This document shows, one piece after another, positions 6,001 through 42,000 of a stretch of 64,000 bases of DNA. Origin of the DNA: Escherichia coli (GTDB lineage: Bacteria > Pseudomonadota > Gammaproteobacteria > Enterobacterales > Enterobacteriaceae). Each line of letters begins with the position of its first letter. Within the stretch, counting starts at the first letter, position 1. Position numbers: made by a program. The DNA lies in the NCBI RefSeq assembly GCF_003334315.1, contig NZ_QOWR01000015.1, one strand, 5' to 3'.

Positions 6001-9000
6001 GTTTTCTGTTAATGTTAACAACCCTTGAATTTCGTCTTTGGTATAGTGGCTCTTTATTTCATTTTTTAATTTGGCTGAGTGAATCAGAAGACGATAATTA
6101 GGGTACTTATCTGGATTTAACGATAAATAACTTTTATCTGTTGCTGCCCCCGTGGAATTAAGAATGTTAAATACAGATTCACTCGTCACTTCTGCCCCTG
6201 TCGCCTGGCATGTGCCGCACGAAAATATACCAGCGAGCAGAAGAGTTAATGCAGATTTCCCTTTCATAAAATATTCCATCAATCGTTTGTTAAAAGCGTA
6301 GATAACCACTTATTTAACAACTTGAAAATAAGGTGTTTTACCTGGGTTGTTACAAAAGGATTGCATTGCGTAAACGCTTTTTATTTACAACAAAATGGGG
6401 AAATATTACGGCGATTGCGAAAAGTCTGAAGCGATTGAATTAAGATAATATAGAAAATCAGATACAGCAAAAATGGCAGATTGATGAGGCGAAGATAAAT
6501 TGGAGCGGGCGAAGGGAATCGAACCCTCGTATAGAGCTTGGGAAGCTCTCGTTCTACCATTGAACTACGCCCGCTTCGAGATGCGTAAGGCATTATAAAC
6601 CTTACGCTCTCCTTAGCAAGTGCCGCGCTGCTGACTGCTGATTAATTCGCCATCAGCATTTTGGCTTGCTGCCCTGCGGCGGCAAGTAACGTAGCGGATC
6701 AATTGCCGTTGCACGGTAACGAATCTGGAAATGCAGGCGAACAGATGCCGCATCCGTGCTCCCCATAGTGGCGATTTTTTGCCCAGCCTTCACGCTTTGC
6801 CCATTATTTACCAGCATCGTGTCATTATGGGCGTAAGCCGTAATGTAATCTTCACTGTGTTTAATCATGATGAGATTACCGTAGCCACGCAGCTGGTTGC
6901 CCACATACACCACCTTTCCTGCACCCGCGGCGTAAATAGGTGTACCCCGTGGAGCTGAGATATCAATCCCTTTATTGCCGCCATCTGCTGTCGAATACGG
7001 CATGATAACTTTCCCTGTCGTTGGCCATAACCAACAACGTTGCCCTACTGGCGGCCAGGATGATTTCGGTACCGCTGATGACGGTGTAACCGATGCGGTT
7101 TTGGTCGTTGATTTGGCGGTTGATTTACGTGTACTACTGCTACTTTTCGCCCCACCCAGTTTTAGTTTCTGACCAACTTCAATGGTGTAAGGGGGGGAAA
7201 TGCCGTTCAGTCGCGCCAGTTCTTTTACGCTGGTTCCCGTGGTGCGCGAAATACGATATAGCGTATCCCCCCGTTTCACGGTGTAAACGGAGCCGGAATA
7301 CGTTCCTGTATCGGATGATTTGCTACCCGAACAACCCGCCAAAAGCAGTCCAACCGATAACAACATCACGATACCCAGAGATTTTTTATTCAGGCGTCCC
7401 GCACTCAAAATCTTTCCTCGCTTAAAAAACAAGACGCCTTATCATAGCAGCCAGCCTCTTGATACCCAATCTCTTGCTTCTGGAAAAACGTGGTAATAGA
7501 GAAAGAGGTTAATTTCATTTGGCAAAGGGAAGTATCATCAGCAAAATATTCGCTGTAGAGGTATCGAACTTCCTGACTTTTTACCCTAGTTCCCATCCTG
7601 ATGCGTAATAATCCCAATTTATCACATTGATTTTATCGCCACTCATATTGATACGTATCACTGCCCCTATTCAGAGTCCTGTTTCGTATCATATCTGTGT
7701 TTTTTTAACGTCATCACACTTCCTACCTCCCCTAACGCTTATCGTCGTTTCTGGCGTAAATCTTGCCTGCTTAGACTAAATCTTTGCCATAAGAACCAAA
7801 TGTTCAAATCGAGGGGATTTCTATGGAAGCGCGGGAAGCAACCGCTACGGGTGAATCATGCATGCGCGTCGATGCCATTGCTAAGGTCACCGGGCGGGCA
7901 CGATATACTGACGATTATGTTATGGCGGGCATGTGTTATGCGAAATATGTACGTAGCCCTATCGCACATGGTTATGCCGTAAGTATTAATGATGAACAAG
8001 CCAGAAGTTTGCCGGGCGTACTGGCGATTTTTACCTGGGAAGATGTGCCTGATATTCCATTCGCTACAGCTGGGCATGCCTGGACACTTGACGAAAACAA
8101 GCGCGATACCGCCGATCGCGCACTGCTAACTCGCCATGTTCGTCATCATGGTGACGCCGTTGCCATCGTCGTGGCCCGCGATGAACTCACGGCAGAAAAA
8201 GCGGCGCAATTGGTCAGCATTGAGTGGCAAGAATTACCCGTTATCACCACGCCAGAAGCGGCGCTGGCAGAAGACGCTGCACCAATCCATAACGGTGGCA
8301 ATTTACTGAAACAAAGCACGATGTCGACGGGTAATGTCCAACAAACAATCGATGCCGCCGACTACCAGGTACAGGGGCACTATCAGACCCCCGTTATTCA
8401 ACATTGTCACATGGAAAGCGTAACATCGCTGGCGTGGATGGAGGATGACTCGCAAATTACCATCGTTTCCAGCACCCAGATCCCGCACATTGTTCGCCGC
8501 GTGGTTGGTCAGGCGCTGGATATTCCCTGGTCATGCGTACGAGTCATCAAACCATTTGTCGGTGGCGGTTTTGGTAATAAACAGGATGTACTGGAAGAGC
8601 CAATGGCGGCATTCCTGACCAGCAAGCTTGGCGGCATTCCGGTGAAAGTTTCCCTTAGCCGTGAAGAGTGTTTCCTCGCAACCCGTACCCGCCACGCTTT
8701 TACCATTGACGGGCAAATGGGCGTGAACCGCGACGGAACATTGAAAGGTTATAGTCTGGATGTTCTGTCTAACACCGGCGCTTATGCATCTCACGGGCAC
8801 TCCATCGCTTCTGCGGGGGGGAATAAAGTCGCTTACCTTTATCCTCGTTGTGCCTACGCTTACAGTTCAAAGACCTGCTATACCAACCTCCCCTCGGCTG
8901 GTGCGATGCGTGGTTATGGCGCGCCACAAGTCGTATTTGCCGTTGAGTCTATGCTTGATGACGCCGCGACAGCGTTAGGTATTGATCCTGTTGAAATTCG

Positions 9001-39000: not shown

Positions 39001-42000
39001 GTCATGTACGCAGGTGCAGTCGCTGTTCCTCTTATGATTGGTGACCGACTGGGCCTCTCAAAAGAAGCTATTGCGATGCTCATTAGCTCGGATCTCTTTT
39101 GCTGCGGGATCGTCACATTATTGCAATGTATCGGTATCGGCCGCTTTATGGGGATCCGCCTGCCGGTGATTATGTCGGTGACCTTTGCTGCTGTAACACC
39201 AATGATAGCCATTGGGATGAACCCGGATATCGGCCTGCTGGGGATCTTTGGTGCCACTATCGCCGCGGGTTTTATCACCACATTATTAGCGCCACTTATC
39301 GGTCGCTTGATGCCTTTATTCCCGCCACTGGTTACCGGTGTGGTTATTACTTCTATTGGGCTTAGCATCATTCAGGTGGGTATTGACTGGGCCGCCGGAG
39401 GTAAAGGGAATCCGCAATATGGTAATCCCGTTTATTTAGGTATCTCCTTTGCCGTCTTAATTTTTATCTTGCTCATTACTCGCTATGCGAAAGGATTTAT
39501 GTCCAACGTCGCCGTATTACTGGGGATTGTATTTGGCTTTTTACTTTCGTGGATGATGAATGAAGTCAACTTATCCGGGCTACATGATGCCTCGTGGTTT
39601 GCGATTGTCACCCCGATGTCGTTTGGTATGCCGATTTTCGATCCCGTTTCCATTCTGACCATGACTGCCGTGTTAATCATCGTGTTTATCGAGTCGATGG
39701 GGATGTTCCTGGCACTGGGTGAAATAGTCGGTCGTAAACTCTCTTCACACGATATTATTCGCGGGCTGCGTGTCGATGGCGTAGGGACAATGATAGGCGG
39801 AACGTTTAACAGCTTCCCCCACACGTCATTTTCACAAAACGTTGGCCTGGTTAGCGTGACGCGTGTTCATAGCCGCTGGGTGTGTATTTCTTCGGGAATT
39901 ATATTAATCCTGTTTGGCATGGTGCCAAAAATGGCGGTGCTGGTCGCCTCCATTCCGCAATTTGTGCTGGGCGGCGCTGGGCTGGTGATGTTCGGCATGG
40001 TACTGGCGACAGGGATTCGAATTCTGTCGCGCTGTAACTACACCACCAACCGTTACAACCTCTATATTGTGGCGATCAGTCTCGGCGTTGGCATGACTCC
40101 GACGCTCTCTCACGATTTCTTTTCTAAGTTACCGGCCGTACTGCAACCGCTGCTACATAGCGGCATTATGCTCGCAACCCTTAGCGCCGTTGTGCTGAAC
40201 GTCTTCTTTAATGGCTATCAGCATCATGCTGACCTGGTGAAGGAATCCGTCTCTGATAAAGATTTAAAAGTCAGGACAGTACGTATGTGGCTTCTGATGC
40301 GCAAGCTGAAGAAAAATGAGCATGGAGAATAATATGAATCTTTTAATGCGCGCTATATTCAGTCTGCTGTTGCTTTTTACTCTCTCTATTCCTGTCATTT
40401 CTGACTGTGTTGCAATGGCCATTGAAAGTCGCTTCAAATATATGATGCTACTTTTTTAAATGGTTTTTACCTGTCGGCATCCGCTCAAAACGGGCGGTTG
40501 TCGATAAACGCTCACTTGGTTAATCATTTCACTCTTCAATTATCTATAATGATGAGTGATCAGAATTACATGTGAGAAATTATGCAAACGGAACACGTCA
40601 TTTTATTGAATGCACAGGGAGTTCCCACGGGTACGCTGGAAAAGTATGCCGCACACACGGCAGACACCCTCTTACATCTCGCGTTCTCCAGTTGGCTGTT
40701 TAATGCCAAGGGGCAATTATTAGTTACCCGCCGCGCACTGAGCAAAAAAGCATGGCCTGGCGTGTGGACTAACTCGGTTTGTGGGCACCCACAACTGGGA
40801 GAAAGCAACGAAGACGCAGTGATCCGCCGTTGCCGTTATGAGCTTGGCGTGGAAATTACGCCTCCTGAATCTATCTATCCTGACTTTCGCTATCGCGCCA
40901 CCGATCCGAATGGCATTGTGGAAAATGAAGTGTGTCCGGTATTTGCCGCACGCACCAACAGTGCGTTACAGATCAACGATGATGAAGTGATGGATTATCA
41001 ATGGTGTGATTTAGCAGATGTATTACACGGTATTGATGCCACGCCGTGGGCGTTCAGTCCGTGGATGGTAATGCAGGCAGCCAATAGTGAAGCAAGAAAA
41101 TTGTTGTCTGCTTTCGCGCAGCACAATTAAAAAACCCCGACATTTGCCGGGGTTATGAGCATAACGTAATGCTTATTTTACTGGACGCATCGCCGGGAAC
41201 AGAATAACGTCGCGGATGGTATGGCTGTTGGTGAACAGCATTACCATACGGTCGATACCAATTCCCAGACCTGCTGTCGGCGGTAAGCCGTGTTCCAGTG
41301 CGGTGACGTAATCTTCGTCGTAGAACATCGCTTCGTCGTCACCTGCGTCTTTCGCGGCAACCTGATCCAGGAAGCGCTGCGCCTGATCTTCCGCGTCATT
41401 CAGCTCGCTAAAGCCGTTACCGATTTCACGACCACCAATGAAGAACTCAAAGCGGTCTGTGATTTCCGGGTTAACGTCGTTACGACGCGCCAGCGGAGAA
41501 ACTTCTGCCGGATATTCAGTAATGAAGGTCGGCTGAATCAGATGTGCTTCTGCCACTTCTTCGAAGATCTCGGTAACGATACGGCCCAGACCCCAGCTCT
41601 TCTCAACGTGGATGCCGATAGATTCAGCAATCGCTTTTGCAGAGTCGAAGTTGTCCAGATCCGCCATGTCGGTTTCCGGGCGATATTTCTTGATCGCTTC
41701 ACGCATGGTCAGTTTTTCGAACGGTTTACCGAAGTCCAGCGTCACGTCGCCGTAGGTCACTTCCGTCTTACCGAGAATATCCTGTGCCAGAGTACGGAAC
41801 AGCGATTCGGTCAGCTCGATCAGATCTTTGTAATCTGCGTAAGCCATATAGAGTTCCATCATGGTGAACTCTGGGTTATGACGTACGGAAATACCTTCGT
41901 TACGGAAGTTACGGTTGATTTCGAATACACGCTCGAAGCCACCGACCACCAGACGCTTGAGGTACAGTTCCGGCGCGATACGCAGGTACATGTCAAGATC

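Follow-up and report, generated by a model that had tools for sequence, protein, structure and literature searches.

The xdhA-uacT region of Escherichia coli: a known reductive uric acid degradation locus with candidate operator sites for YgeV

Introduction

Positions 7752-40460 of a 64,000-nucleotide stretch of Escherichia coli DNA (contig NZ_QOWR01000015.1 of assembly GCF_003334315.1; hereafter, the window) carry genes for molybdenum hydroxylases, Fe-S flavoproteins, amidohydrolases and nucleobase transporters, together with ygeV, which encodes an enhancer-binding protein for sigma-54 promoters. The question raised by this locus is what it does, how it is controlled, and how much of the answer is already available. 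An original prediction from sequence alone interpreted it as a sigma-54-associated system for purine or urate breakdown whose substrates, intermediates and inducing signal were largely unestablished. The functional part of that interpretation stood, while its view of the state of knowledge was outdated: the pathway was worked out in papers from 2023-2025, in which the enzymes were purified and placed in order and urate induction and glucose repression were described, and it was present in reviews by 2025-2026. The locus is thus an already known system, with solved biochemistry. The addition made here is a small one, namely a palindrome that is likely, judged from sequence, to be the operator of YgeV; the remaining regulatory and selenium questions are probably of specialist interest.

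The locus, which bears on gout and hyperuricaemia, provides gut bacteria with a route for removal of urate excreted into the intestine. Its engineering into E. coli Nissle has already yielded a probiotic for lowering urate (PMC12507026). The predicted YgeV operator sites make its regulation directly testable. They could also help to explain strain differences in urate consumption, which Liu et al. (10.1101/2025.04.24.650524) attributed to regulation.

Results

Reductive uricolysis encoded by the xdhA-uacT region

Window positions 7752-40460 are the E. coli xdhA-uacT chromosomal region. Very probably, its gene products enable purine uptake, conversion to urate and anaerobic breakdown to pyruvate, ammonia and ATP, via four cooperating modules. 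All genes listed in the original prediction were present and intact, as judged from the open reading frame (ORF) table, RefSeq annotation and NCBIfam and Pfam profiles; its inventory omitted ygeX (diaminopropionate ammonia-lyase) and ygeY (M20 hydrolase), which encode the final two steps of the pathway. Positions 7752-30000 showed 100% DNA identity with many E. coli chromosomes, and 5149 of the 5426 complete E. coli genomes contained at least 80% of this segment. Liu et al. (2025, bioRxiv 10.1101/2025.04.24.650524) compared ten E. coli strains and gave amino-acid identities above 98% for the cluster.

The RefSeq record of an identical strain (L001, in which locus coordinates equal those of the window plus 5249) was used as annotation reference. 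Its gene order, with minus-strand genes marked, is xdhABC, ygeV(-), ygeW, dpaL/ygeX, ygeY, hyuA, arcC/yqeA, yqeB(-), yqeC(-), mocA/ygfJ, ygfK, ssnA, ygfM, xdhD, xanQ, guaD, ghxQ, ygfS(-), ygfT(-), uacT and yqfG. The cluster start at 7752 lies in the -24 element of the sigma-54 promoter of xdhA, and its end at 40460 lies just beyond the small ORF yqfG, downstream of uacT. An Rfam scan detected no riboswitch, small RNA or other Rfam family within the cluster.

Proteins were assigned to families by NCBIfam profile scans, in which scores were compared with the curated cut-off of each named family. All named proteins except GhxQ exceeded these cut-offs; GhxQ had no NCBIfam match and instead matched Pfam family Xan_ur_permease (1.8e-80). 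XdhD and YgfM scored 2118.3 bits against a cut-off of 1101.9 (TIGR03313) and 489.7 against 241.5 (TIGR03312), respectively. Scores for YgfK and SsnA, encoded by adjacent genes (23577-28006), were 1774.6 against 835.3 (TIGR03315) and 737.7 against 455.5 (TIGR03314). All proteins of the lower pathway, encoded in a single co-directional block (13782-19910), were above their curated cut-offs (for example, YgeW 825 against 453 and YgeY 721.6 against 321.5).

The interpretation as purine and urate catabolism agrees with enzymology and knock-outs performed with E. coli enzymes of the same cluster. Li et al. (2025; PMC12507026) found that E. coli XdhD co-purifies with YgfM and, with NADH, converts urate to 2,8-dioxopurine ('yanthine'). 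In the same study, YgfK together with SsnA, supplied with NAD(P)H, yielded ureidomethylhydantoin, with 5-ureidodihydrouracil as a minor product, and HyuA converted both compounds to 2,3-diureidopropionate, from which YgeW and phosphate formed albizziin and YgeY and YgeX then formed pyruvate. A xdhD deletion strain accumulated urate and made no 2,8-dioxopurine, while a ygfK deletion strain made no ureidomethylhydantoin (PMC12507026). Liu et al. (2025; bioRxiv 10.1101/2025.04.24.650524) independently arrived at the same pathway, whose intermediates they also detected in mutants of E. coli. Genes from strains MG1655 and Nissle were used in these studies (PMC12507026; 10.1101/2025.04.24.650524). 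Conversion of urate to pyruvate by the window's gene products is predicted from both reports and from the 100% identity of the window with many E. coli genomes. Published work has established the steps catalysed by the enzymes, the sigma-54 sites, induction by uric acid and repression by glucose.

In the resulting scheme, XdhD-YgfM would reduce urate with NADH to 2,8-dioxopurine, the ring of which would be reduced by YgfK at the expense of NAD(P)H and hydrolysed by SsnA to yield ureidomethylhydantoin. Opening of the hydantoin by HyuA would give 2,3-diureidopropionate, whose 2-ureido group would be phosphorolysed by YgeW to carbamoyl phosphate, leaving albizziin. YqeA would then convert carbamoyl phosphate to ATP, CO2 and ammonia, while YgeY would hydrolyse albizziin to 2,3-diaminopropionate, from which YgeX would form pyruvate and ammonia.

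Two older annotations of these genes imply other functions. HyuA scores in the dihydropyrimidinase/D-hydantoinase family and, according to its annotation ('D-phenylhydantoinase'), was first characterised on phenylhydantoin, so that hyuA, ygeW, ygeY and ygeX could be taken for a purine-independent salvage route of hydantoin, D-amino-acid or reductive-pyrimidine type. This idea has been largely refuted by the cleavage of urate-derived ureidomethylhydantoin and 5-ureidodihydrouracil by HyuA (PMC12507026) and by E. coli mutants in the same four genes, which make no labelled acetate from 13C-urate (Liu et al.); we give it next to no credence. Selenate reductase similarly persists in RefSeq and NCBIfam names ('putative selenate reductase subunit YgfK', for example), and Haft and Self (PMC2276186) credit Bebien et al. 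(2002) with tying the genes to selenate reduction. If ygfK-ssnA-ygfM-xdhD primarily encoded a selenate reductase, the selenium link would reflect detoxification rather than a cofactor. The activities of purified XdhD-YgfM and of YgfK with SsnA, and the blocks at the corresponding steps in vivo in the xdhD and ygfK deletion strains (PMC12507026), make this very improbable. Moreover, Haft and Self argued against detoxification from phylogenetic profiles (PMC2276186), and the operon shares its regulon with the other uricolytic genes (PMC10602906).

Reductive uricolysis would be fed by the oxidative and salvage genes of the locus. XanQ, GhxQ and UacT would import xanthine, guanine/hypoxanthine and urate, respectively; guanine would be deaminated by GuaD, and hypoxanthine and xanthine oxidised to urate by XdhABC. 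XdhA scored 1482.7 against an NCBIfam cut-off of 916, and a xdhA deletion strain of E. coli did not consume xanthine (PMC12507026). YgfT (1503.4 against a cut-off of 1154 for NF009451) and, presumably, YgfS may couple the pathway to formate-derived electrons. A formate-dependent role of ygfT in uric acid utilization is credited to Iwadate and Kato (2019) in later papers that cite their study.

Table 1. Genes, promoters, candidate regulatory sites and a terminator-like element of the xdhA-uacT region, in window coordinates.
Feature	Position	Strand	Assignment	Basis or remark
Candidate xdhA upstream sites	7619-7633; 7641-7653		TTATCACATTGATTT; reverse complement of TATCAATATGAGT	100-130 bp upstream of promoter
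xdhABC sigma-54 promoter	7751-7767	+	CTGGCGTAAATCTTGCC	Identical to chromatin immunoprecipitation sequencing (ChIP-seq) site OS29 (PMC4591121)
xdhA	7823-10120	+	Xanthine dehydrogenase: hypoxanthine and xanthine to urate	NCBIfam equivalogs, RefSeq
xdhB	10131-11009	+	As xdhA	NCBIfam equivalogs, RefSeq
xdhC	11006-11485	+	As xdhA	NCBIfam equivalogs, RefSeq
ygeV (= isrR)	11525-13303	-	Sigma-54 enhancer-binding protein	Pfam, NCBIfam enhancer-binding protein families
Candidate composite region, ygeV-ygeW spacer	13444-13501	+	GATATCACA, N6, TATCAATATGAGA, N~17, TTATCAAACTGA	170-230 bp upstream of ygeW promoter
CRP-like site	13614-13629		TGTGATCAACCCCACA	Between upstream sites and ygeW promoter; GTGA..CA.A conserved in four-genus alignment
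ygeW-ygeX-ygeY-hyuA-yqeA sigma-54 promoter	13672-13688	+	CTGGCACACTTATTGTT	ChIP-seq OS30 (PMC4591121); genomic SELEX (gSELEX) peak (PMC8743547)
ygeW	13782-14969	+	Carbamoyltransferase: 2,3-diureidopropionate and phosphate to albizziin and carbamoyl phosphate	
ygeX/dpaL	15027-16223	+	Diaminopropionate ammonia-lyase, to pyruvate and ammonia	
ygeY	16281-17492	+	M20 hydrolase: albizziin to diaminopropionate	
hyuA	17545-18930	+	Hydantoin ring opening	
yqeA/arcC	18978-19910	+	Carbamate kinase, yields ATP	
yqeB	20131-21756	-	XdhC-like N-terminal half and TIGR03309 domain	NCBIfam
yqeC	21804-22574	-	TIGR03172	NCBIfam
yqeB sigma-54 promoter, intragenic in yqeC	22157-22173	-	TGAGCACGAACCTTGCA	Mutated and validated in PMC4591121
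mocA/ygfJ	22677-23255	+	Molybdenum cofactor cytidylyltransferase	TIGR03310, RefSeq annotation
Candidate ygfK site	23306-23320		Perfect palindrome TTATCATAATGATAA	0 mismatches; 170-180 bp upstream of ygfK promoter
ygfK-ssnA-ygfM-xdhD sigma-54 promoter	23488-23504	+	GTGGTGCGATTGTTGCT	ChIP-seq OS31 (PMC4591121)
ygfK	23577-26675	+	Fe-S flavoprotein reducing 2,8-dioxopurine	NCBIfam
ssnA	26678-28006	+	Amidohydrolase, pyrimidine ring opening	NCBIfam
ygfM	28057-28836	+	FAD subunit of urate to 2,8-dioxopurine enzyme	NCBIfam
xdhD	28833-31703	+	Mo/Fe-S subunit of urate to 2,8-dioxopurine enzyme	NCBIfam
G+C-rich hairpin	31713-31728		GGCCGCTTCGGCGGCC	Directly after xdhD; likely terminator between ygfK operon and xanQ
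xanQ	31868-33268	+	Xanthine permease	NCBIfam, RefSeq annotation
guaD	33286-34602	+	Guanine deaminase	NCBIfam, RefSeq annotation
ghxQ	34638-36005	+	Guanine/hypoxanthine permease	Pfam Xan_ur_permease, RefSeq annotation
ygfS	36041-36529	-	4Fe-4S ferredoxin-like	
ygfT	36529-38448	-	Fe-S and GltD-like flavoprotein, 'formate-dependent uric acid utilization protein'	NCBIfam NF009451
ygfT sigma-54 site	38495-38511	-	TATGCCCGTTTATTGCA	ChIP-seq OS32 (PMC4591121)
Candidate site, ygfT-uacT spacer	38676-38690		ATATCAATATGAGAA	~165-180 bp upstream of ygfT promoter
uacT	38884-40332	+	Urate/proton symporter	NCBIfam NCS2/pbuX, RefSeq annotation, YgeV iModulon member

Sigma-54 promoters and the regulator YgeV

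The predicted association with sigma-54 was confirmed by comparison with the ChIP-seq data of Bonocora et al. (2015; PMC4591121), who mapped sigma-54 at xdhA, ygeW, ygfK and ygfT and within yqeC. All five published motifs were located in the window at the expected places, with identical sequences (-24 GG and -12 GC; Table 1), and mutation in the same study showed that the yqeC-internal site drives yqeB. Binding of RpoN in the ygeV/ygeW spacer was also detected by gSELEX (PMC8743547). A plain sigma-54 consensus scan, with 45 matches against 42 expected, was uninformative alone, and a sigma-70 promoter scan gave results at chance level (18 found, 18.8 expected). The sigma-54-like sequence TGGCACTCCACGAGCA (38800-38815), 85 bp upstream of uacT, was not counted as a promoter; it was missing among the listed ChIP-seq rows (PMC4591121). 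It is situated downstream of the palindrome at 38676, at a distance of approximately 110 bp, and uacT is a member of the YgeV iModulon.

In a Pfam scan, YgeV showed a Sigma54_activat domain (PF00158, 2.1e-70), an AAA lid, a C-terminal HTH_8 domain (PF02954, 3e-13) and a PAS domain; a GAF-like match was weak, and no receiver domain was detected. In the PRECISE-1K expression compendium, a YgeV iModulon of co-expressed genes was defined, and ygfT expression was lower in a ygeV mutant (PMC10602906). Cluster genes are uric-acid-inducible in gut anaerobes, and in MG1655 uric acid caused strong induction of ygfK and ygfT (Liu et al., bioRxiv 10.1101/2022.07.24.501321). The pathway is subject to glucose repression, and replacement of a 'native Crp-binding site' in the ygeV-ygeW spacer led to constitutive expression (Li et al., PMC12507026). 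In the proposed regulatory scheme, YgeV would activate the sigma-54 promoters of xdhABC, ygeW-yqeA, ygfK-xdhD and ygfT, with uric acid as inducer and CRP conferring glucose repression.

No published ligand or binding sites of YgeV were found in the literature. Comparison of its sensor region with PDB sequences yielded generic PAS matches only (best E-value 9e-4, WalK), from which no ligand could be inferred. YgeV has been renamed IsrR, after its induction by indole in enterohaemorrhagic E. coli.

A palindrome shared by the four sigma-54 spacers

The 13-mer TATCAATATGAGA was noticed in three of the four promoter spacers, with a palindromic variant in the fourth. With up to two mismatches, it occurred nine times in the window, against 1.2 expected, and it represents a half-degenerate form of the palindrome TTATCA-N3-TGATAA. 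The palindrome itself (TTATCANNNTGATAA, up to two mismatches) occurred eight times in the 64 kb, with five occurrences in the four sigma-54 spacers (1624 bp), where 0.2 were expected; in 5000 first-order Markov simulations, a count of five in these spacers was never reached. The core of the region is made up of four sigma-54 units with a common palindrome. In all four spacers, the candidate sites fell within 80-400 bp of the promoter, at 100-230 bp upstream. This is the usual distance of an enhancer.

Conservation of the sites was assessed in an alignment of four ygeV-ygeW spacers, from E. coli, Raoultella, Klebsiella grimontii and Enterobacter sp. Bisph1 (whose YgeV is 69% identical). Only a minor part of the spacer was conserved, and the best-kept block, ATCACA..TATCA..ATGA.AA....TTTATCA...TG, coincided with the E. 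coli composite region (13444-13501). Other conserved islands were the CRP-like element and an invariant promoter, TGGCA...TTATTGTTAG. Two further loci were left out of this comparison, one from a frameshift-ridden long-read assembly (L083) and one with no recognisable neighbours (L084). A contig scan with full-length YgeV was dominated by the generic AAA+ motif and contained, among the matches listed, one close orthologue (that of Enterobacter sp. Bisph1, L002), while a protein search with the N-terminal 265 residues returned mostly fragments.

Distant full-length matches (L005, L010 and L012) extended the comparison to other phyla, with the Firmicute and fusobacterial homologues sharing 35-38% identity with YgeV. 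Beside full-length YgeV homologues (36-38% identity) from Sedimentibacter (Bacillota) and Propionigenium (Fusobacteriota), the palindrome occurred in three copies, followed by a sigma-54 promoter and an operon led by ygeX. One of the two operons encoded YgeW, YgeY, YgfK and YqeA; the other encoded YgeY, SsnA and a xanthine permease.

A corresponding regulon, DioR, was described in Clostridiales by Nie et al. (2019; PMC6615313) and likewise combines a YgeV-like enhancer-binding protein, TTATCA-N3-TGATAA and a sigma-54 promoter. Predicted DioR sites, such as ATTTATCATAATGATAAGG and ATTTATCAAAGTGATAAGT, precede dpaL, ygeW-ygfK-ssnA-ygeY and xdhABC (supplement of PMC6615313). The extended E. coli ygfK site, CTTTATCATAATGATAAGG, differs from the predicted Clostridium botulinum site ATTTATCATAATGATAAGG at one of 19 positions. 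DioR was predicted in Clostridiales only, with its function listed as 'Unknown'. The E. coli spacers carry an additional CRP site. Literature searches found no report of the palindrome for the E. coli locus. Enrichment in the spacers, conservation among enterobacteria, occurrence of the same palindrome in other phyla and the match to the DioR motif led us to propose that YgeV is likely the orthologue of DioR, with the palindromes as its probable operators.

Related sequences occur elsewhere in the locus. Near-palindromes lie within the coding sequences of ygeX (ATATCATCTTGATAT, 15302-15316) and yqeC (TTCTCACATTGAGAA, 21916-21930), the latter downstream of the intragenic yqeB promoter. A conserved block containing TGATA (AGATCATGATGATATTAAC, 13360-13378) is found approximately 60-75 bp upstream of the start codon of ygeV. 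Its aligned counterpart in Enterobacter is TATCAATATGAAA (L002 9919), and the block may be a site for autoregulation of YgeV.

Molybdenum cofactor genes and selenium

MocA (YgfJ) scored 214.3 against a cut-off of 186.45 for TIGR03310 and would make the cytidine-dinucleotide form of the molybdenum cofactor. Beside the molybdenum hydroxylase genes lie two markers of the selenium trait, YqeB (TIGR03309, 417 against 220) and YqeC (TIGR03172, 242.7 against 73.05). Haft and Self (2008; PMC2276186) identified yqeB and yqeC, by co-occurrence with SelD, as marker genes for a selenium cofactor of molybdenum hydroxylases; in E. coli, selD (b1764) is located elsewhere on the chromosome, outside the window. 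YqeB, and perhaps YqeC, may mature or selenate the molybdenum cofactor.

Experiments on the selenium requirement come from other bacteria. The 2,8-dioxopurine dehydrogenase obtained from a selD mutant of Clostridium sporogenes was inactive (Liu et al., 10.1101/2025.04.24.650524). In Clostridioides difficile, growth on xanthine and urate required selD and yqeB and did not require yqeC; a yqeB deletion resembled selD mutants and a yqeC deletion had no phenotype (PMC11448449). From the co-occurrence of YqeB and YqeC with SelD and from these experiments, we infer that the E. coli enzymes may be selenium-dependent as well.

Weight of evidence for the locus and for a possible joint regulatory and selenium model

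Taken together, YgeV may be a DioR orthologue that binds the palindromes at xdhA, ygeW, ygfK and ygfT, with CRP acting between enhancer and promoter at ygeW. Its GAF-like/PAS domain may sense urate or 2,8-dioxopurine directly, and XdhD (perhaps also XdhA) may be the labile-selenium enzyme predicted by Haft and Self in 2008, with YqeB as its maturation factor. This combined model is offered tentatively, its chances of holding in full being somewhat below even.

Several observations weigh against the interpretation of the locus as a whole. The motif was first spotted in the same spacers that were later used for the statistics, and the assignment of YgeV sites is purely computational. XdhA (376.8) and XdhD (298.4) scored below the cut-off of 830.45 for the selenium-dependent xanthine dehydrogenase family TIGR03311; their subfamilies differ from TIGR03311, so that the low scores leave a selenium cofactor possible. 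The text of Li et al. on the E. coli enzymes does not mention selenium, yqeB, yqeC or ygfJ (PMC12507026). The reported response of the yqeB promoter is to nitrogen limitation, not to purines (PMC4591121). YgeV has also been tied to indole and virulence regulation and to ethanol stress (PMC10602906 for ethanol), which suggests that urate is perhaps not its sole or direct signal. Finally, xanQ-guaD-ghxQ, ygfJ and yqeC fall outside the YgeV iModulon, from which yqeB is also absent, and have no mapped sigma-54 site, so that the locus is not a single regulon.

The 31 kb might not be one system but juxtaposed, separately controlled modules, namely an oxidative/salvage module (xdhABC and xanQ-guaD-ghxQ), a uricolytic module and cofactor genes, whose unity would then be overstated by the description as a sigma-54-associated cluster. 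Terminator-like hairpins after xdhD and ghxQ (the latter at 36011-36034), with a further one after yqeA, fit this description, as do the gaps in the iModulon, the intragenic promoter of yqeB with its reported response to nitrogen limitation, and the loci of Enterobacter, Raoultella and Klebsiella, which have just ygeV, ygeW-ygeX-ygeY-hyuA-yqeA and an xdhC-like gene. As a full account it is unlikely: a sigma-54 site and the palindrome recur in front of xdhABC, of the lower and upper operons and of ygfT, the expression of these units co-varies (PMC10602906), and the products form a single metabolic route from imported purine to pyruvate (PMC12507026). In part it is right, as the hairpins, the iModulon absences and the yqeB promoter together indicate that the region consists of cooperating modules rather than one group of sigma-54 operons.

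The yqeA-yqeB spacer contains two exactly identical copies of a 28-nt terminator-like hairpin, AGGCCGGGTGGGTAATACCATCCGGCCA (19916-19943 and 20096-20123), 180 bp apart. These flank an inverted repeat (19994-20009 / 20041-20056) that resembles a repetitive extragenic palindromic (REP) element.

Comparison with known systems

The locus in the window does not differ materially from the E. coli reductive uric acid degradation cluster of Li et al. (2025, Life Metab, PMC12507026). That study leaves yqeB, yqeC, ygfJ, ygfS and selenium untreated and mentions ygeV once, without binding sites. The 2,8-dioxopurine pathway of C. sporogenes and other gut anaerobes (Liu et al., 2023, Cell; 10.1101/2025.04.24.650524) has intermediates and enzyme families in common with E. 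coli, and E. coli proteins were used for its reconstitution. Co-occurrence of yqeB, yqeC and selD is likewise common to both. The clostridial dehydrogenase XdhAC lacks the YgfM flavin subunit and needs SelD, whereas a selenium requirement in E. coli is presumed. C. difficile has a PydA-like enzyme in place of YgfK and a hydrolase in place of YgeW and YqeA.

Reductive pyrimidine degradation (PydA/PydB/PydC) follows the same logic, with flavin-dependent reduction of a uracil-like ring (YgfK versus PydA), opening by an amidohydrolase (SsnA/HyuA versus PydB) and cleavage of a ureido group. In E. coli, by contrast, the substrate is a purine from which a molybdenum enzyme first removes the 6-oxo group, and one ureido group leaves by phosphorolysis and is conserved as ATP. 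The clostridial xanthinase pathway (Rabinowitz; C. cylindrosporum / C. purinolyticum) resembles the E. coli pathway in being anaerobic and in its first enzyme, a molybdenum hydroxylase for which urate or xanthine is the substrate; it differs in proceeding via xanthine, with direct hydrolysis to glycine/formiminoglycine. Xanthinase intermediates were not found in mutants of E. coli or C. sporogenes (Liu et al.), and C. cylindrosporum lacks those genes of the E. coli-type cluster that are inducible by uric acid.

Partial clusters in related enterobacteria and neighbouring sequences

The loci of Enterobacter sp. Bisph1 (L002 2477-11776), Raoultella (L081 522-9774) and Klebsiella grimontii (L082 501-8472) consist of ygeV, ygeW-ygeX-ygeY-hyuA-yqeA and a short xdhC-like gene only, which is equivalent to the N-terminal half of yqeB. 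None of ygfK, ssnA and xdhD was found within the fetched flanks of these loci. Such half clusters may serve to break down intermediates taken up from outside; alternatively, the upper genes may be located elsewhere. In Enterobacter sp. Bisph1, the same palindrome lies upstream of the xdhC-like gene (L002 2177). Several genes of the locus are split in the Raoultella record and are either pseudogenes or assembly errors.

Outside the cluster, Rfam matches in the window comprised a minus-strand tRNA (6504-6574; tRNA-Gly in RefSeq), naRNA4 (49911-49988), a REP-derived nucleoid-associated RNA, and 6S RNA (ssrS, 63498-63681). Upstream of the cluster, the annotation of the reference strain (L001 5894-9893) shows IS1A and the remains of a type III secretion system: sctT and genes of the EscS/EscR family, YscQ and EscU-family genes with frameshifts, and part of a needle-length determinant of the SpaN/EivJ family.

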